Counted from the stretch's first letter, positions 10,680 through 37,827 are shown. The stretch: 64,000 nt of DNA from Acidimicrobiales bacterium (GCA_963422655.1 OY730440.1:2930909-2994908), one strand, 5' to 3'. Notes: generated by a model from the sequence alone, not told the origin. Program-made: numbers and translations.

Positions 10680-11944
10680 CGTAGGCTGGCCGCATGGATC
10701 GTCAGCAAGAGTTCGGCATCGTCGATGAGGCGATACTCGGGCCGTTTACCGGACAATCTCTCACTGTTGTCAAGGATGATCTCCACCCCTTCGCCGCGCT
10801 TGTCCATCATGGTTCGACGGTCCGTAGTCAGCCATGGCCGGTCAGCCGGAACCCGACATTTGGCGAGCAGACTGGTAAGGACTTCGTTGCGGGTCGATTG
10901 CAGGTGAGCAAGGTTTTCGATGGTCATCGCGTTCGCAATAGCACCCGGTGAGTAGAGTTCCAAGCGATCCTCGAACATTCGCAGCCTGATCTTGGAGCCG
11001 TGGATCGAATAGTCTCTGTGCGCAACCGCGTTGACGACAGCTTCGAACACCGCCGTCATGTCGAACTGCGGTCGATCCACCCGTCCCTGCTCCTTGAAAG
11101 CTTCTACCTTCATGTTCTTCACCACGAATCGGCAAGCATCCACAATTTGGTGGTCGAGCGGCCCGACGATGTCCGCGGCGTCCAGTTGGTAGAGATCTCC
11201 GGATGCTCCGCCAGCTCTGATATCGGTGCCACGGTATGCAACAGCCTGAATGTACGCGTTGGGTAACCACTGCCGTGCATCCTCAGCGGCCATCAACACA
11301 CCAGCAACGGTTGGCCTTGATATACCGGTGTCATCGGTACTCACCATGTGGAGATTGGAAAGCAAATTCTGCAATGAATCCCCCGTACGCGAGGTTCTGA
11401 ATCGATCACAGAGATCGGGAGACAAGTTTTCCAGGCATGCTCCGGGGATGGTTTGCTCATCGAAACGGATGAAGCGAACTTGACTACGCTGCTGGAACAG
11501 CCGAGCAAGATACTCAGGAGACATGGCCCGTTTCATGCTCCCGACACGGTAAAAGTATCCACCAGGGCTTCGATGTACGAACAGGCTTCGCGGCACATCG
11601 ATCTTGACAACGGCGACATCCTCTCCCGTGGTCGCAGGCAGCCATATGAGGTCTATAACCGGGTTTATCGGAGGTGTGATGATGTCCGTACATGCCTCAC
11701 GGACGAAGCGCTCCACGATGGCGAGACTTTCAACGGGAATCCCCAGTACTTCTCGTGTATCGTCTTCCACGCCCAGCAGGCATACACCACCGCGGCTGTT
11801 GGCGAAAGCAGCTAATTCATCAGCAATGGAATCGCGATGAGGCCCACTGACTCGCCCACTCTTGAACCGGACTTCCTTCAGTTCCAGGAAAGTAGATTCC
11901 CCCAGTCGAATCTTGTCGAGCAGTTCCTTCGGGCTATCGAACAT
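10676..11944 (-). CDS. Schlafen/AlbA_2-domain + HATPase_c_4-like protein, no C-terminal HTH (422 aa)
   Basis: GESTFLELKEVRF...ELAAFANSRGGVCLLGVED (AlbA_2, PF04326-type). ...FEAVVNAVAHRDYSIHGSKIRLRMFEDRLELYSPG (HATPase_c_4-type). The start overlaps the upstream stop by 11 nt. Confidence 0.85.
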   Translation of the reverse strand: MFDSPKELLDKIRLGESTFLELKEVRFKSGRVSGPHRDSIADELAAFANSRGGVCLLGVEDDTREVLGIPVESLAIVERFVREACTDIITPPINPVIDLIWLPATTGEDVAVVKIDVPRSLFVHRSPGGYFYRVGSMKRAMSPEYLARLFQQRSQVRFIRFDEQTIPGACLENLSPDLCDRFRTSRTGDSLQNLLSNLHMVSTDDTGISRPTVAGVLMAAEDARQWLPNAYIQAVAYRGTDIRAGGASGDLYQLDAADIVGPLDHQIVDACRFVVKNMKVEAFKEQGRVDRPQFDMTAVFEAVVNAVAHRDYSIHGSKIRLRMFEDRLELYSPGAIANAMTIENLAHLQSTRNEVLTSLLAKCRVPADRPWLTTDRRTMMDKRGEGVEIILDNSERLSGKRPEYRLIDDAELLLTIHAASLR

Positions 11945-14789
11945 GCGGCAGCTTGTGTCCCAGCCGTCGGTAACGGCGTTCGAATGCTTCGTGCCCGCCT
12001 TCCATGACCCGGCAGATTTCTTCGCGCATGGCTTCTTCCTGTAGACACCCAGACTGAACTACCCGGCACTGGCCGTCGACGAAATCCAGCGCATGCAACA
12101 TCTCCGCATCCCCGTTGACCACCACATTGGGGTTGTGTGTCACGACGATGATCTGTCGCTTGAGTTTGTTCTCTCGGATCTGTCGCACGACCAAATCGTA
12201 GATCAGATGATTGTCGAGATCGTCCTCCGGTTGATCCAGCACCAGCGGCTCCTTGCCGTATGTGAGCAGAAATGCCAGCATCGCCGCCGACCGCTGCCCT
12301 GCCGATGCTTGGGAGATGGGCTGAAAATCGGTGCCATCGCCCCCGCGGCTGTACTCCACTCGTAACCCGTCTTCGGGGAACCAAGTCCATACCTTGTCGA
12401 GGAAACCTGGCTGCTCATCGAATTTACGTTTCAGGTAATTGTTGAAATGTCCGCCAAAACTACCGCGCCCTGAACAGGCAGCCTCAATGCGGTGCTTGAG
12501 CTGATCGATGCGCTGTTCAATTGTAGTACTTCGTTGCCCTGTCTCGGAGGGTATGCCATCCAGAAGATCGGCTATGGCACCTTCTGGTGCCGCACCATCC
12601 TGATTGGTGAGGATATCGTTTTGGAATCGATCGTCGGTGACATCGAGTATCTCGCGCAGCGAACGCTCTATAGTCTGAGGATCGTCTCCATAGGATCGGA
12701 TTTGGATCTGCACGAAGTCGTTCTGATCCAAGGTCTGGGTCAGGAAGGCTTCCCGAGCCTTACTGATCGATCTACGGGCTTCCAGGACTTTCTTCAACTG
12801 TGACTGCGACTGCCTTTCTAGCCGATCACGCTCTCGCTGCAACGAATCCAGTTCCTTTATCTCACTGTCCAGGCGTTGGCGGTCCTGCACCAGACGTCCG
12901 TATTCGCTCGGGTCGGTCACGCCTTCTTCTCTCACTGCGCTGACCAATTCCGCGTAATCCTCGGTGGCTTTGTCGATAGCAGCCTGCCAGTCGCTTCGGG
13001 TCAATTCTGCCCGTTGTGCTTCTATGATATCACGCAGACGCTGGGCACAACGTCGTAGGTCATCAGCGGTACTCTGCAAGGCTGACGCCAGCGTATCCAT
13101 AGCCGATATTGCATCCTGATCTTCCTTCGAACCCGTATTGAACAGACCGTCAGGGATGTCCTCTGGTTGCAACGCCTGGGCCGCGTTTTCGACACGCTTT
13201 GCCAACTTGTCGACAGCACCGAATTGTCGGTCCACCTCCCGTTTCTGGCGGCTACGATCCTGATAACTTTTTAGGATTGCCGCGTGTCGCGCTTCTTCAA
13301 ATCGCGCCAATTTGCGTTCGGCGTCCGCCAACTCGACCGCGAGGGTATGCCGACGATCGAGTCTTCCGTCCAGTTCTCGCACCCGTGCCCGCAAAGTTTC
13401 GAACCCGCGCCGAGCTTCGCCGAGTGCCTCTCGGCGGACTGCTGTGGCCGCCGCCTCGTCGATCACCTGCAATAGTGCATCCGGATCGTCACCGGACAAC
13501 TCTACGATCTGGCCCTGGCTGAAAATGCGAATCGGAAAGCGTTCGGGCGTGATGATCTGACTTTGAGACGGGTGCCAAACCCCGTCGCGCTCTTCCTCTA
13601 TCCCCTCGTTGTTGCCGGTTCGAGACCAGTGCACACGATGCTTGACGCCGTCGCGTATTATCGTCCAGACGATTTTTGTTGATTCCTGGATGCCGCCGGT
13701 ATCCATACGATTCTTGGGGACACGATTGAAGCCCTCGAATGTCAGACGCGGGCCGCTTCGATCATTCAGGTGGCCCAACTCGTTGTCACGTCGCGACACC
13801 AGTCGTAGCGCGTGAACAATTGTGGATTTACCGGTACCGCGTCCGCCCACCACAGCGTTGAGCCAGGGGCTGAACTCGATTATGGCTGGTTGGCCATGGC
13901 CCATGTACCGTGCGTCGGCGATTTCGACCGCTTCGATGAAGTGCTCCGGCAGCTCGAACGGGTTGAAAGCATCGGGATCGTCGCTGCGCCGGATCGAAAA
14001 CCCCTGGCCGTCCAGTAGTGCCAACCTCAACCCTGCCAGTGATGGAGGGTTGGCCATTTTCACCCAGGAGTAACGAGAGCCAGGAGAACGACTACTGATT
14101 GATTCTCTGGGGTGATGCGAATCGGAACCGAGAACTTCGGCCCATGCCAGCTTCCTCTTGTGGTATACGTCCGGTTTATCTCTGCCGGTATCGACCACCT
14201 CGATCGCGAACAGACCTTCATGATCCAGTATTGGCGCTAGTTTATTGCCGGATAATTGCCAAGCGCCTGACGGGCCGTCCACATGAGCAAGAACAGTAAC
14301 ATATCCGTTCTCACTTATAGCTTGTAGTACCTCGATGGGAGATGCATCGGCTGCATAGTCACTCGATCCTGAGTCGCCTCGATACCCCACTGCCCCCAGC
14401 AGTGCATCGATGTCGGCGGTTCCTTTGTCTATATCTAATACAGCAAGGATGTGAATGTTGCCGTTAGCAGTGATTTCTACACCAGGGAACAGGTGCAACT
14501 GTCGATAGCCATCAGGGCGCTCATGGTCCAAATCATCAAGTGCTTGTTTGAGAGGGTCGATCCACTCTCCGGTGTTGTGATCTGTCACTGCTACGCAGTC
14601 CACACCGGCGCGCATGAATCCGAGTAACCAATCCCGGGGGGTGATCTGACGCAACGCGGCTTGCGCAGGTCCTTTACCGTAATCCATGGATGCAGGCGTG
14701 TGCGTGTGGAAATCGAATTTCCACCACCTTGCACCAGGATAAGACCAGCGCTGGTCTGGGTTTGAAATCTCTGGCTGGGCACTATTCAT
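11934..14789 (-). CDS. PHP-domain phosphoesterase fused to an SMC/Rad50/SbcC-like ABC ATPase (951 aa)
   Basis: PHP motifs: FDFHTHTPAS (H28/H30), VAVTDHN, LAHVDGP, LGSDSHHP. Walker A GGRGTGKST (aa 315-323, nt ~13821-13847). A Glu/Arg/Leu-rich coiled-coil region spans ~aa 430-700. ABC signature SAGQRS and Walker B LVLDQPEDDLD follow, then VVTHNPN. A GGAGGTGG SD lies 6 nt upstream of the ATG. Confidence 0.85.
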   Translation of the reverse strand: MNSAQPEISNPDQRWSYPGARWWKFDFHTHTPASMDYGKGPAQAALRQITPRDWLLGFMRAGVDCVAVTDHNTGEWIDPLKQALDDLDHERPDGYRQLHLFPGVEITANGNIHILAVLDIDKGTADIDALLGAVGYRGDSGSSDYAADASPIEVLQAISENGYVTVLAHVDGPSGAWQLSGNKLAPILDHEGLFAIEVVDTGRDKPDVYHKRKLAWAEVLGSDSHHPRESISSRSPGSRYSWVKMANPPSLAGLRLALLDGQGFSIRRSDDPDAFNPFELPEHFIEAVEIADARYMGHGQPAIIEFSPWLNAVVGGRGTGKSTIVHALRLVSRRDNELGHLNDRSGPRLTFEGFNRVPKNRMDTGGIQESTKIVWTIIRDGVKHRVHWSRTGNNEGIEEERDGVWHPSQSQIITPERFPIRIFSQGQIVELSGDDPDALLQVIDEAAATAVRREALGEARRGFETLRARVRELDGRLDRRHTLAVELADAERKLARFEEARHAAILKSYQDRSRQKREVDRQFGAVDKLAKRVENAAQALQPEDIPDGLFNTGSKEDQDAISAMDTLASALQSTADDLRRCAQRLRDIIEAQRAELTRSDWQAAIDKATEDYAELVSAVREEGVTDPSEYGRLVQDRQRLDSEIKELDSLQRERDRLERQSQSQLKKVLEARRSISKAREAFLTQTLDQNDFVQIQIRSYGDDPQTIERSLREILDVTDDRFQNDILTNQDGAAPEGAIADLLDGIPSETGQRSTTIEQRIDQLKHRIEAACSGRGSFGGHFNNYLKRKFDEQPGFLDKVWTWFPEDGLRVEYSRGGDGTDFQPISQASAGQRSAAMLAFLLTYGKEPLVLDQPEDDLDNHLIYDLVVRQIRENKLKRQIIVVTHNPNVVVNGDAEMLHALDFVDGQCRVVQSGCLQEEAMREEICRVMEGGHEAFERRYRRLGHKLPHVR

Positions 14790-14828
14790 ACGGCCACCTC
14801 CACCTACTGTATGTCTATTCCTGTAAGC

Positions 14829-16583
14829 TCATTTCCCTGCTATACGGCTGTATTCCAAGAGCACCGACTGGCCCATGACGTTCATGATTCGAACCGTTGC
14901 CTCCATTCCGTTGGCGTCAGTGACGCTCAACTCCTCCCCGAAGATGAAGTTGACAGGCTGCGGCACGCCTGCGTTGATGGTGATATTGGATGCATAGAGA
15001 TAAGTCCTGCCGAACTCATCTCGAATGGGATTTAGTCGTCCGGTCAAGCCCGGAATGCTACCGGTTGCTTCGGGGAAGATTACCGAGCCGCCTTCGGGTC
15101 GAGTATTCAGATTGAGAGTGAGCGATCTTCGTGACGGAACCCACCCGAGCTCCAGTTGGGCCGCGAAGCCTTTGGCGGCCGCGAATACCGTCATCGGCAG
15201 ATGGGCAACGTGCAGATCGACGACGGCCTCTCCATTGTCGTTCGTGGTCGCGCGTTTCCATGTCTTGTTCGGAAACAGTGTCAACACGTCCACATCGGCC
15301 AACGGCTCGCTGCCGCTGTGTACAGTGATAACGGCGTTTGTTGGTGTGGATTCCAACGACGCGGCTGGAACCGCGAGACAGAGTGCGGTTCCGTCTATGA
15401 GTCGAAAGTCGGGAAGTGTGCCGCATAGCTCCCAAGTCTCTCGCTGGATGATAGGGACCCCGTCTCCCCGTCGCTCCATGAAGAAGTGTCTTCCACTCGT
15501 TCCTTCGATGCCCACAACGCTTACCCTGCCCAGAACCGAAGTCAGTACTTCGTTACGTGTCGATTGCCGATCGCCCATACTTTCGATCGTCAGGTTGTTG
15601 GGAAGTGGGCCAGGAGAGCAAAGCTCGAGCCGATTCTCGAACATCGAGAGCCTGATCCTGCTGCCTCGAATCGAGTAGTCACGGTGAACGACGGCGTTGA
15701 CCAGCGCCTCGAACAGGACCTTTTTGCTGTACTGGGGGATATCTCGGCGCGCCGGATTCTTATGCGCTGCAATGCTCATGTTGCGCACGGCGAAAGCCAG
15801 AGCGTCCGTAATCTGCCTGTTGATCGGCCCGCCGATGATTTGTGTATCCAACTGCCCGGATGCCTTGTCTACACCCCGGTAGCGGGTTGCGATAATGCAG
15901 GCGTTGGGGAGCCATCGTTCGGGTGAGTTACTGCACAGCAGCACACCCGCGACGGTGGCCCGCGTCACGTCTTTCACGTCGGGTGCCAGCAACCCCATCT
16001 TCTCCAGCGCCAGTTCCGGATCGGCGGCGCTCTCAGCGCTGAGTAGAGGTCTCCACAGGGCCTCGTCGAGCGTCCCGAACCCTGTCTCGGGCACGGGCTG
16101 CTTGTCGAACCAGAGAAAGCGCGCCTGGCCTCGCCTCTGCGCCAAGCGCAGCCGTTCGTCACCGGCTATTTTTCGCTTGGTACTACCCACCCGGATGTAG
16201 CTACCGCCGGGACTGTCGTGCGGTGCGTGTCCCTCGGGGACTTCCACCAGCAGAAATGACTTACCTTCGGTTATCTCCTTGCGAAATATATTGACCCTGA
16301 TCAAGGGATTTACAAGGTTGGTGCATACTTCTGATATAAGGCGTTCCACTTCGTCCATCTGCGGGCGGGACAGGCCCTGAACATCACCTGCGTCGGTGAT
16401 GCCGCACAGCAGCACGCCGCCGTTGGTGTTGGCAAAGGCGGCGATTTCGTCCGCCCAATCCTCACGCTGAGGGCTTTTGGGACGATTGCCGACGAATACG
16501 ATTTCTTTGAATTCCCAGTTGCTGTCTTCGCCCAATCGAAGTTGGCGCCTGACTGCTTCGTCGCTGTACGGCATTGCTGCCAT
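14829..16583 (-). CDS. Schlafen/AlbA_2-domain + HATPase_c_4-like protein with a ~170-aa beta-rich C-terminal domain instead of an HTH (584 aa)
   Basis: GEDSNWEFKEIVF...EIAAFANTNGGVLLCGITD. FEALVNAVVHRDYSIRGSRIRLSMFENRLELCSPG. The C-terminus (aa ~415-584) has alternating hydrophobic/polar beta-like segments and no recognisable HTH. An alternative start is Met4 (16574), which has AGGA upstream. Confidence 0.85.
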   Translation of the reverse strand: MAAMPYSDEAVRRQLRLGEDSNWEFKEIVFVGNRPKSPQREDWADEIAAFANTNGGVLLCGITDAGDVQGLSRPQMDEVERLISEVCTNLVNPLIRVNIFRKEITEGKSFLLVEVPEGHAPHDSPGGSYIRVGSTKRKIAGDERLRLAQRRGQARFLWFDKQPVPETGFGTLDEALWRPLLSAESAADPELALEKMGLLAPDVKDVTRATVAGVLLCSNSPERWLPNACIIATRYRGVDKASGQLDTQIIGGPINRQITDALAFAVRNMSIAAHKNPARRDIPQYSKKVLFEALVNAVVHRDYSIRGSRIRLSMFENRLELCSPGPLPNNLTIESMGDRQSTRNEVLTSVLGRVSVVGIEGTSGRHFFMERRGDGVPIIQRETWELCGTLPDFRLIDGTALCLAVPAASLESTPTNAVITVHSGSEPLADVDVLTLFPNKTWKRATTNDNGEAVVDLHVAHLPMTVFAAAKGFAAQLELGWVPSRRSLTLNLNTRPEGGSVIFPEATGSIPGLTGRLNPIRDEFGRTYLYASNITINAGVPQPVNFIFGEELSVTDANGMEATVRIMNVMGQSVLLEYSRIAGK

Positions 16584-16785
16584 CCTATTGCTGTGAGATC
16601 AGCGAACTTCCCCTTCACTGTCGTTGAACTCCAGCCGGAATCTCGTCGGTCTCGACACCTCGTTTGGTTATGATTTGCGGTCCTTTCGTCAAGGCTCGTC
16701 TCCAGCGTCAGCTATATTGCCTCGGCCCGCCGAACAGCCGATTCGGAGTGATCGAAGCAGCTTTCGCCGTCGATCAGGATCGTTC

Positions 16786-18339
16786 ATGACCGAAGAACCC
16801 ATCTACGACGCCCGCACCTTCTGGGAGTTGCTCCAGCGCCGGGTCGAGATCAGCGGTGATCGGACGATGCTCATCGACGAGACCGACCGCACCGTGACCT
16901 TCGCCGAGTTGACCGACCGGGCCGAACAGGTGGCGGCCGGCCTGCACGCCCTGGGGGTGGGGGAGTCCACCCCGGTCACATGGATCCTTCCCACCCGCAT
17001 CGAGACCATCGTGGTCAGCTTCGCCCTGTGCCGGCTCGGTGCGGTGCAGAACCCGATCATCCACATCTACCGGCACCGAGAGGTGCGTTTCTGCATCGCT
17101 GAGACCGGAGCCCGGCTGGTGATACATCCGGGCACCTGGGGTGGTTTCGATTACGGAGCCATGATCGACGAGGTCACCGCCGACCTCGACCCCCGGCCCG
17201 AGACTCTGGTCGGCTACGACACCTTGCCCACCGGCGACCCGGCCACGCTGCCACCCCCGCCCCGATCCGGCGGCGACGCCCCGGTTCGGTGGTTGTACTA
17301 CACGTCGGGCACCACCGCCGATCCCAAAGGAGTCGAACACACCGACGAAACACTGATTGCCGGCGGTATCGGGCTGGCTCGGGCGCTCGACATGAGCATC
17401 GAGGACGTCGGCTCCATTGCCTTCCCATACGCTCACATAGGCGGTCCCGACTACATCGTCACCATGCTGGTCAGCGGTTTCCCGGCCGTGTTGGTCGAGC
17501 GGTTCACCCCGGCTGGTGCCGTGGCCGCTTTCAACCGTCACGGCGTGACCATGGCCGGCGGATCGACCGCGTTCTACCAGATGTTTCTGGCCGAGGACCG
17601 CAAGGCAGCCGGCCCCGCCATCGGATCGCTGCGGCTGCTGTCGGGCGGGGGAGCGCCCAAGCCACCCGAGGTCTACTTCGAGGTGAAGGAGCAGATGGGG
17701 GTGCCGGTAGTCCACGGCTACGGCATGACCGAATGCCCGATGATCAGCCAGGGATCACCCCACGACAGCGACGACCAACTGGCCCACACCGACGGCCGGC
17801 CCGTGTTCGGCTGCGAGGTCGGCATCGTTGGCCCCGACGGCGCCGAGGTGACACCGGGCGAGGTCGGCGAAGTACGGGTTCGAGGTCCGATGCTGTTCAA
17901 GGGCTACACCGATGCCGCCCTCGACGCTGCCGCTTTCGACTCCGAGGGCCGGTTCCGCACCGGCGACTTGGCGGTGAAGCGAGCCGACGGCCACATATCG
18001 CTGAGCGGTCGGGTCAAGGATGTCATCATCCGCAAAGGCGAGAACATCTCGGCCCGAGAGATCGAGGACATCTTGTACGCCCACCCCAAAGTGGAAGCGG
18101 CGGCGGTGATCGGGCTGCCCGACCCCGAGCGGGGCGAGCGGGTGTGCGCGGTGGTGGAGACGGCGGTCGGTCAGGAGCCGCTGACCTTCGCCGAGATGGT
18201 GGCAGCCTGTGAGGAGGCCGGGCTCATGCGCCAGAAGGTGCCCGAACAACTGGAGGTCCACCAAGGTCCGTTGCCCCGCAACGCCACCATGAAGATCCTC
18301 AAGCACGACCTTCGAGCCCTATACGGAACCGACCCCTGA
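16786..18339 (+). CDS. AMP-dependent synthetase/ligase (acyl-CoA synthetase family)
   Basis: LYYTSGTTADPKGV (AMP-binding motif I), GYGMTE, TGDL...GR.KD.I. Start set at the ATG at 16786 (MTEEPIY). The upstream part of ORF 16624.. is intergenic-like. Confidence 0.8.
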   Translation: MTEEPIYDARTFWELLQRRVEISGDRTMLIDETDRTVTFAELTDRAEQVAAGLHALGVGESTPVTWILPTRIETIVVSFALCRLGAVQNPIIHIYRHREVRFCIAETGARLVIHPGTWGGFDYGAMIDEVTADLDPRPETLVGYDTLPTGDPATLPPPPRSGGDAPVRWLYYTSGTTADPKGVEHTDETLIAGGIGLARALDMSIEDVGSIAFPYAHIGGPDYIVTMLVSGFPAVLVERFTPAGAVAAFNRHGVTMAGGSTAFYQMFLAEDRKAAGPAIGSLRLLSGGGAPKPPEVYFEVKEQMGVPVVHGYGMTECPMISQGSPHDSDDQLAHTDGRPVFGCEVGIVGPDGAEVTPGEVGEVRVRGPMLFKGYTDAALDAAAFDSEGRFRTGDLAVKRADGHISLSGRVKDVIIRKGENISAREIEDILYAHPKVEAAAVIGLPDPERGERVCAVVETAVGQEPLTFAEMVAACEEAGLMRQKVPEQLEVHQGPLPRNATMKILKHDLRALYGTDP

Positions 18340-18386
18340 TTCCTGGCGCGACGACGGGCACCGAGATCGATCACGTTGACACATCG

Positions 18387-18464
18387 TGCACCTCGACAAC
18401 ATGCACCTCGACAAGGAGCACGGTAAGCAACGAGTACGGTAGGCAACGGGCGCGGTAAACAACG
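18387..18464 (+). promoter_or_regulatory. two sets of direct repeats in the leader of the ArsC-like gene
   Basis: tgcacctcgacaa occurs twice (18387-18399 and 18402-18414, period 15). cggtaRRcaacg occurs three times (18421, 18437, 18453; period 16). The last copy ends just before the GGGAGGGAG SD. Confidence 0.4.
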
Positions 18465-18479
18465 TCGGGAGGGAGTTCA

Positions 18480-18854
18480 GTGGCCGAAGTCACGATCTAT
18501 CACAACCAGAATTGAAACTCGTCTCGCAACGCCGTGGCGGTCGCCGCGGAGATGGGAGTGGTCTTCGATGAGGTCCGTTACCTGAAGACACCACCGGACG
18601 AGGAGTCGCTGCGAGCCATCGTGGCCAAGCTGGAGGACCCGGTCGAGAACCTCGTCCGTAAGGACGCTCAGTTCGCCAAGCTGGGGCTGGCCGAAAGCGA
18701 CTACGTGGGCAGCCCCGACGCGGTCGTGACCGTGTTGGTGAAACACCCCCGGCTGATGCAGCGCCCGGTACTGGTCCGAGGCGACCGGGCCATAATCGGC
18801 CGGCCCTTGGCTGGCACCAAGGCCAGAGGCCGGATCGAGTCCCTGCTGCGATGA
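18480..18854 (+). CDS. ArsC/Spx-family thioredoxin-fold protein (glutaredoxin-type arsenate reductase-like) with in-frame TGA at the catalytic-Cys position
   Basis: A GTG at 18480 lies 4 nt after the GGGAGGGAG SD. The translation VTIYHNQN-[TGA 18513-18515]-NSSRNAV aligns with E. coli R773 ArsC ITIYHNPA-C12-GTSRNTL. The rest of the ORF (ORF-track 18534..18854) is in the same frame and stays ArsC-like (...HPRLMQRPVLV). Confidence 0.6.
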
Positions 18855-19059
18855 CCACGCTGCGATGCTGCGATGGACTTGGCCCGGTACCGAGGCGATC
18901 TGAGCGCGGCTCTGGCCCGCCTCGACGAGCTGGCTACGCTGATACCGGCGCGTGATCGGGCGCGCTGACAGCGTCGGCGGTACCGGCTAGAGTTCGGCCC
19001 GGTCCAAGACACCGGGCTCGGCCCTACCAAGGGTCCGGGCCGTCACGAAGGGGAAACCG

Positions 19060-37439: not shown

Positions 37440-37827
37440 TGGTGGAGCTGGAGGGAATCGAACCCTCGTCCGTCAGGCGGATGTCGAGCGTGCTACGACC
37501 ATTCCCGAGATTCTGGCTTGCGGATGCCAGCCCGCCGGGTCGGGTGGACCAAAGGCCCAGCCTCGGATCTTTCTCCGTGTCAGCGGTCTTTGCCGGCTGT
37601 CAGCGGTCTGTCCCGGCTGTCACCGCTGCTTCTGGTGCCAGGCTGCAGCGGTCAGGCCCCGCGTGCCATTGCTGGTCGCGATGATTCTCAGCTCACCTGA
37701 TCGGATCAGGCGGCGAGAACGAGATCGTCCGAATCGGCGTCTCTTTGGGTGCCCCGTTTAAGGAGTCTGAGCAACTCCGGTCGCACGCACTGGCTTCCAG
37801 GTCCCGGCGTCGAAACCGATCAGCCCC
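37440..37827 (-). ncRNA. ssrA: tmRNA (SsrA), predicted tag ADSDDLVLAA
   Basis: 5' GGGGCUGAUCGGUUUCGACG... and 3' ...GGGUUCGAUUCCCUCCAGCUCCACCA (tRNA-Ala-like acceptor/T-arm). The internal reading frame GCC GAU UCG GAC GAU CUC GUU CUC GCC GCC UGA was read from the reverse complement. Confidence 0.95.

Follow-up and report, generated by a model that had tools for sequence, protein, structure and literature searches.

A conserved in-frame UGA predicted to encode selenocysteine in an ArsC-family gene of an Acidimicrobiales bacterium

The genome of an Acidimicrobiales bacterium (GCA_963422655.1) contains, in the 64,000-nucleotide stretch analyzed here (OY730440.1:2930909-2994908, referred to as the window), a gene of the ArsC family whose in-frame TGA is a conserved selenocysteine (Sec) codon accompanied by a recoding hairpin. 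The apparent stop being a Sec codon, the gene is intact, and it is predicted with high confidence to encode a genuine Sec-containing ArsC-family protein through SECIS-dependent recoding of the UGA. The candidate selenoprotein put forward in a first-pass annotation of the window is upheld by the sequence, by its conservation, by the decoding machinery of the genome and by the hairpin; arsenate as its substrate stays at the level of inference, because the arsenite efflux genes ACR3 and ArsB were not found in the host genome.

An open frame across an internal TGA

Direct reading of the plus strand places a Shine-Dalgarno-like sequence (GGGAGGGAG, 18467-18475) ahead of a GTG start codon at 18480-18482, with a 4-nt spacer, TTCA, between the two, as the first-pass annotation had stated. 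From this GTG, the frame stays open past a TGA at 18513-18515; the true stop is the second TGA, at 18852-18854. The earlier description of a frame that continues, apart from the one TGA, unbroken into the open reading frame 18534-18854 is therefore borne out by both the sequence and its translation. The coding sequence of the ArsC-family selenoprotein (18480-18854, plus strand) comprises 124 codons, and with TGA read as U, it yields a product of 124 residues that begins VAEVTIYHNQNUNSSRNAVAVAAEMG... and carries Sec as residue 12, at the head of a U-N-S-S motif. Standard ORF calling returns 18534-18854 alone (106 codons).

The full-length product matches the Pfam ArsC domain (PF03960) over residues 7-110 with an E value of 2.7e-13. 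In the phmmer alignment, U12 is placed opposite Cys12 of R773 ArsC (MSNITIYHNPAC; PDB 1i9d/1jzw), so that the claim that the TGA falls exactly on the nucleophilic cysteine holds. In the orthologs, an ATG start occupies the position that corresponds to GTG 18480.

ArsC-like active site and possible substrate

The best match among the NCBIfam models is the arsC equivalog TIGR00014, with a score of 85.7 bits that lies below the cut-off of 106.05. Assignment to Spx/MgsR (TIGR01617) was tried and rejected, the score being 49.2 bits against a cut-off of 75.05; moreover, the motif is U-N-S-S and a second Cys is missing, and thus the CXXC switch of Spx is absent. The nearest solved structures by sequence are arsenate reductases (E ~1e-13). 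An AlphaFold2 model built from the family alignment (pLDDT 95.4, pTM 0.87) retrieved 3rdw and 3f0i (TM 0.76-0.84) and R773 ArsC (TM 0.74-0.81) as the best Foldseek matches, with rmsd values of 2.0-2.7 A, and Spx and YffB ranked lower.

Nine positions, H8, U/C12, S15, R60, R95, P96, G107, R108 and P109, are invariant in 81 Sec- and Cys-containing sequences. Arg60 (codon 18657-18659, plus strand) aligns to the catalytic Arg60 of R773 ArsC, and Arg95 (18762-18764, plus strand) to its Arg94. Arg108 (18801-18803, plus strand), which belongs to a GRP motif, is taken as the counterpart of R773 Arg107 indirectly, because the phmmer alignment to R773 ArsC ends at residue 100; the GRP motif aligns with that of 3rdw and 3f0i.

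The protein thus resembles R773 ArsC (1i9d, 1jzw) in its fold (TM ~0.8, rmsd ~2.1 A, ~28-32% identity), in having its nucleophile at position 12 of an HNPxC-type loop, and in retaining the equivalents of Arg60, Arg94 and Arg107. It differs in the replacement of Cys by Sec, in its length (124 versus 141 residues) and C-terminus, in its location outside an ars operon in a genome in which ArsB and ACR3 were not found, and in its score below the TIGR00014 cut-off. The structures of Yersinia pestis (3rdw) and Vibrio cholerae (3f0i), the best matches by both sequence (E ~1e-13) and structure, are of similar length (119-121 amino acids) and have the same HNPxCSxSR, RP and GRP motifs; unlike the present protein, however, they are Cys-containing, come from Gammaproteobacteria, and have been assigned a putative function only.

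The genomic context shows no link to arsenic resistance. Immediately upstream lies an AMP-binding, acyl-CoA-synthetase-like gene (16624-18339, plus strand; Pfam PF00501 and PF13193; terminal TGA at 18337-18339), which occupies the same position 5' of the Sec-ArsC gene in 26 public loci. The two genes, adjacent in the host's family, may be co-transcribed. Further neighbors are a pyridine-nucleotide-disulphide oxidoreductase with a Reductase_C domain, followed by PNPase and DapB; no ars operon surrounds the Sec-ArsC gene in the window. No ars genes adjoin it in the three other lineages sampled, in which the neighbors are P-II, IlvD, a periplasmic binding protein and an aminotransferase. As for the thiol systems, a mycoredoxin was searched for in the host genome without a match, and the MshC model gave three matches, all of them below the cut-off and indistinguishable from CysS paralogs. 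GSH/Grx is an unlikely reductant system in an actinobacterium.

Several other features of the region were recorded. The 140-nt leader between the AMP-binding and the Sec-ArsC genes contains short, phased direct repeats (18381-18464), namely 15-nt units at 18381 and 18396 followed by three cggtaNgcaacg-like units. They were rejected as a part of the system, being absent from the leaders of two relatives of the same genus; the leader of one such relative has a different, 16-nt tandem duplication. On the minus strand, 11934-16583 encodes two defence-like proteins, a 951-aa AAA_21/SMC_N ATPase and a 584-aa Schlafen AlbA_2/HATPase_c_4 protein. A tmRNA gene with the tag ADSDDLVLAA was identified by ARAGORN on the minus strand at about 37440-37827 of the window (genome 2968348-2968735).

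By analogy with R773 ArsC, the chemistry is most likely that of the R773 type with a selenolate as the nucleophile, and arsenate is modestly favored as the physiological substrate. A serious minority possibility is that this is a genuine Sec protein with a physiological substrate other than arsenate, that is, a housekeeping redox enzyme of the ArsC family that reduces, for example, another oxyanion, a mixed disulfide or a selenenylsulfide. The missing ACR3 and ArsB, the lack of adjoining ars genes both here and in the three other lineages, the synteny with the AMP-binding enzyme kept in 26 loci, the TIGR00014 score under the cut-off, and the fact that the closest structures, 3rdw and 3f0i, are merely 'putative' arsenate reductases all point in this direction; against it, the residues of R773 arsenate chemistry (Cys12, Arg60, Arg94 and Arg107) are all kept and invariant, and the search for arsenite exporters and other arsenic-handling routes was confined to ACR3 and ArsB. 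Furthermore, stand-alone arsC genes are common, which also counts against a substrate other than arsenate. The more far-reaching proposal that the Sec-ArsC clade of the Acidimicrobiia as such represents a housekeeping selenoenzyme with a different substrate, and does not serve arsenic detoxification, is tentative and rather unlikely; the retention of Sec-ArsC in nearly every genome of the family, in genomes that are without ars operons, would fit it, as would the missing ACR3 and ArsB of the host genome.

Distribution of the Sec and Cys forms

A search with the protein as the query detected an ortholog with one in-frame TGA (58-77% identity) in 38 of 61 related genomes. These include 34 of the 37 genomes from 11 genera of the host's family, in addition to four other families of the order. 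The remoter homologs in the 61 genomes (at most 53% identity) have no internal stop. In all 30 of the 30 oriented loci the TGA is found at the identical column, in the context (I/L)(Y/F/L)H-x-x-x-U-x-S-S, and most of these loci have an ATG 3-5 codons before the TIYH motif.

A survey of public genomes, restricted to one genome per species, gave 80 loci, which are filed under the names Acidimicrobiales, Ca. Aldehydirespiratoraceae, Ca. Microthrix, Ca. Poriferisodalis, Gaiellales and others. The codon at the column in question is TGA in 61 of them and TGC or TGT in the remaining 19. The motif of the Cys forms is C-S-T-S; Ornithinimicrobium, Kineosphaera, Georgenia, Aquihabitans and Nakamurella are among their bearers. 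Maximum-likelihood analysis of 81 proteins gave a tree in which the Sec and Cys forms are split by a single branch with a support of 100/91. The comparison with orthologs that the first-pass annotation had proposed thus came out in favor of Sec: the relatives have TGA, not TGC or TGT, at the column, and the more distant ones have Cys. The distribution also follows that of selA, which is present in 38 of the 38 TGA-form genomes among the 61 related genomes, although these counts are not phylogenetically independent; with the same restriction on how the counts are to be read, none of the 11 genomes that lack selA has the TGA form, and 3 of the 11 have the Cys form.

The rates of substitution are informative about the short stretch upstream of the UGA. 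Over the eight codons before the TGA, pS is 0.61 and pN is 0.18 in 60 distinct Sec-form sequences (pN/pS ~0.3), and in the downstream flanks of the Sec forms, the values are 0.62-0.70 and 0.24-0.34, respectively. The stretch before the TGA is thus evidently a translated and selected peptide, with purifying selection on both sides of the UGA. The pN/pS ratio of ~0.3, together with the invariance of H8, means that it is neither the head of a pseudogene nor a leader.

Two observations on the taxonomic spread stand apart from these results. First, Sec-ArsC genes are found in MAGs labelled as Gammaproteobacteria, Actinomyces, Chthoniobacterales and Acidobacteriota (L053, L065, L091 and L103), and in the tree, the encoded proteins nest within or beside the Acidimicrobiia clade, with L091 having nearly the branch length of an Acidimicrobiia MAG. 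This suggests mis-binning or mislabelling, and transfer is less likely. Second, four genomes of one related genus have a second, shorter ArsC-family paralog, MLTLYYNANUSKARGAV...MQRP...IGRP, which also has an in-frame TGA at the nucleophile; its motif, U-S-K-A, is neither UxxS nor UxxC (for example, L130, G010:C2:753100-753600, and L131, G027:C1:1418330-1418830). This U-S-K-A paralog was not found in the host genome.

A covarying hairpin downstream of the UGA

A 7-bp hairpin of the SECIS type is formed by 18532-18549 (plus strand), within the codons A18-V19-A20-V21-A22-A23-E24. It consists of a 5' arm CCGUGGC (18532-18538), a loop GGUC (18539-18542) and a 3' arm GCCGCGG (18543-18549), and one pair of the window's stem is a U-G wobble. 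The stem begins 16 nt and the loop 23 nt after the UGA, and the G-U of the loop is found at nucleotides 28-29; the SECIS model that Zhang and Gladyshev devised for bacteria allows such distances. The first-pass annotation had drawn a hairpin after the TGA with an inner and an outer part, and had placed the apical loop, said to contain a G, about 19 nt from the UGA. The inner hairpin and the G of the loop stand, and the distance has to be corrected to 23 nt. The window does allow the outer stem (18518-18525 with 18549-18556), but with only 53% pairing in 58 orthologs, it is not conserved and was dropped.

The inner hairpin is strongly conserved. The nucleotides after the UGA are almost fixed in the orthologs (GCC GUG GCG GUC GCC ACG G), the stem of the family is CCGUGGC / GCCRCGG, and the GGUC loop is nearly invariant. 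Over 58 distinct sequences aligned without gaps, pairing in the 7-bp stem reaches 94.6%, the register of the stem outscores all slid controls, and 4 of the 7 pairs exhibit changes on both sides, that is, compensatory changes. At one pair, for instance, 28 sequences have G-C, 25 have U-A and 1 has C-G, and another pair is C-G in 48, G-C in 2, U-A in 2 and U-G in 2. RNAalifold recovered only 5 of the 7 stem pairs. Furthermore, synonymous divergence in the Sec forms drops to 0.17 in the seven hairpin codons, compared to 0.61-0.70 in the flanking codons, and it is 0.56 for the same codons in the Cys forms. The suppression being confined to the Sec forms, the constraint is specific to the UGA-bearing genes.

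The thermodynamic stability of the region is not exceptional. The fold energy after the UGA was no better than that of dinucleotide shuffles (z -0.73 for 63 nt and +0.36 for 121 nt), and the minimum free energy of the 33-nt stretch did not differ between the Sec and Cys forms (p 0.12). An Rfam scan of 18300-18900 gave no match at E values up to 1. In DNA of 64% GC, energy is uninformative, and therefore covariation and the suppression of synonymous changes were relied upon; since stability is no better than that of shuffles, the case for a more-than-chance hairpin rests on the comparative data.

The best-known bacterial counterpart is the SECIS element of E. coli fdhF, in which the minimal SelB-binding hairpin begins 11 nt after the UGA and has G23 and U24 exposed in its loop (PMC8659212). 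The hairpin described here similarly lies within the coding sequence and directly 3' of the UGA, and its short apical stem carries a loop in which G and U are exposed. It differs from the fdhF element in that the stem starts 16 rather than 11 nt after the UGA, and neither a bulged U in the 7-bp stem nor a conserved lower stem is evident. The loop of fdhF is also GGUC and is closed by an A-U pair.

The conserved pairing has consequences for the encoded protein. The switch from G-C to U-A in the stem converts Val19 (GUG) and Thr23 (ACG) to Leu19 (UUG) and Glu23 (GAG), so that across the clade codons 19 and 23 (18534-18536 and 18546-18548) specify either Val/Thr or Leu/Glu. The two residues covary because the SECIS stem contains a base pair between their codons, so that RNA structure constrains the protein sequence at residues 19 and 23.

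The same covariation bears on the idea that the UGA simply terminates translation, with the 11 upstream codons forming a leader peptide and the product being a truncated protein that starts at GTG 18534 and lacks the nucleophile. Although this GTG does open an ORF of 106 codons, the codon at 18534 is TTG (Leu) in 25 of the 61 Sec loci and varies in concert with the position that it pairs with in the stem, unlike a conserved start, and no Shine-Dalgarno sequence precedes it. Moreover, it is the upstream codons that supply the conserved beta-1 strand and the active-site loop of ArsC (TIYHNxxU), with an invariant H8 and a pN/pS of ~0.3, and the fold would lose strand 1 without them. A truncated product is therefore regarded as very improbable, and the full-length Sec protein is preferred.

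Decoding of the UGA

The host genome (a single contig of 3.0 Mb, 64% GC) contains the complete machinery for Sec insertion. Profile searches detected selA (392 bits), selB, which adjoins selA (273 bits), and selD (366 bits); the tRNA-Sec with the anticodon UCA (selC) was identified by ARAGORN at C1:2077014-2077107 and matches Rfam RF01852 with 65 bits. All four scores are above the curated cut-offs, so that the genome check that the first-pass annotation had suggested turned out positive for each of the components. The selD gene (C1:1011393-1012316) is itself a selenoprotein gene, with its own in-frame TGA in the motif HGAGUGCK (1531-1533 of L001). Two stable hairpins follow this UGA, the second of which has a GUG loop about 33 nt downstream, and the z-score for the fold of the region is -2.2.

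A decoding of the UGA other than as Sec, either through reassignment of the codon to Trp or Gly or through near-cognate read-through as Cys or Trp, is most improbable. Low-level near-cognate read-through of UGA occurs in bacteria, but this is a general phenomenon with nothing specific to the Sec-ArsC gene. TGA is an ordinary stop here, since it closes both the AMP-binding gene upstream and the Sec-ArsC gene itself; in addition, homologs have Cys at the column and never Trp or Gly, the TGA form is confined to genomes with selA, and the SECIS-type hairpin is conserved.

A single window, in which gene callers see only the ORF 18534-18854 of 106 codons, cannot separate a Sec codon from a recent nonsense mutation of TGC or TGT in a fresh pseudogene, but this alternative, to which we attach next to no weight, is refuted by the comparative data, namely the presence of the same TGA in 38 related genomes as well as in 61 public loci, with protein identity falling as low as ~55-60%, purifying selection on either side of the TGA, the grouping of the Sec forms on one side of a well-supported branch, and the complete Sec machinery in the genome.

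Discussion

In the most likely mechanism, SelB would bring Sec-tRNA(Sec) to the UGA at 18513-18515 for decoding and would itself be recruited by the 7-bp, GGUC-loop hairpin 16 nt past the UGA within the coding sequence, and the second UGA (18852-18854), which has no such hairpin, would terminate translation. The product would be a reductase of 124 residues that adopts a thioredoxin-like fold, belongs to the glutaredoxin-coupled type of arsenate reductase and uses Sec as its nucleophile. If R773 ArsC is taken as the guide, the selenolate of residue 12, ringed by the invariant Arg60, Arg95 and Arg108, would attack an oxyanion, with arsenate being the default candidate, and a low-molecular-weight thiol or a redoxin would resolve the adduct. 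We infer that selenium is actually incorporated and that SelB binds the hairpin, and likewise the substrate arsenate and the identity of the reductant.

Selenoproteins of this kind have a history in the literature. Among the selenoprotein families that Zhang, Fomenko and Gladyshev newly reported from the Sargasso Sea in 2005 was an 'Arsenate reductase' family (COG1393, UxxS, 14 sequences; PMC1088965), and Zhang and Gladyshev described an ArsC (pfam03960) UxxS selenoprotein family again in 2008 (PMC2398784), in line with the statement in the first-pass annotation that ArsC-like selenoproteins have been reported in metagenomic surveys. As 'Arsenate reductase (ArsC) 1', it was carried forward in reviews of 2022 and 2026, according to which nearly all such selenoprotein families are uncharacterised (PMC9312934, PMC13188914); for the ArsC family, the 2026 review notes no experimental data on selenium incorporation or activity. 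In addition, the BSepDB paper uses an ArsC-like Cys protein of Ornithinimicrobium as an example of a query that retrieves Sec homologs, and the Cys forms of Ornithinimicrobium fall in the sister group of the Sec clade in our tree.

The gene has the features by which ArsC 1 is defined, the comparison with the published members (AACY01238341, MBT3519430.1) being by description only. It shares with that family an ArsC domain (pfam03960, COG1393, TIGR00014-like) with Sec in place of the catalytic Cys, the U-x-x-S motif (here U12-N-S-S15, with an invariant S15), a small hairpin that lies just 3' of the UGA and has a G in the apical loop, and widespread Cys homologs. Judging from its sequence, it is thus a further member of the ArsC 1 UxxS selenoproteins, from the Acidimicrobiales. 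Unlike the published sets, which consist of anonymous marine reads, the 61 loci found here belong to Acidimicrobiia genomes, and in the clade that they form, Sec and Cys are separated by one split and the GGUC hairpin is nearly fixed.

As the family has been predicted from ocean metagenomes since 2005, the finding is correct but not new. What the analysis adds is modest: a large clade of Acidimicrobiia with one split between the Sec and Cys forms, a covarying and almost invariant GGUC hairpin by which amino acids of the protein are made to change in pairs, and the lack of arsenite efflux genes, which leaves room for substrates other than arsenate. There is a practical side to this for annotation, in that the gene would be called as a fragment of 106 codons without its active site, and the same error is probably present in dozens of Acidimicrobiia genomes. 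In evolutionary terms, the SECIS constraint forces paired changes in the protein, with V19/T23 in some members and L19/E23 in others. With 61 Sec loci, 19 Cys loci and one switch between them, the clade is a clean natural Sec/Cys pair, and it could serve as a model of the contribution of selenium to the chemistry of ArsC.
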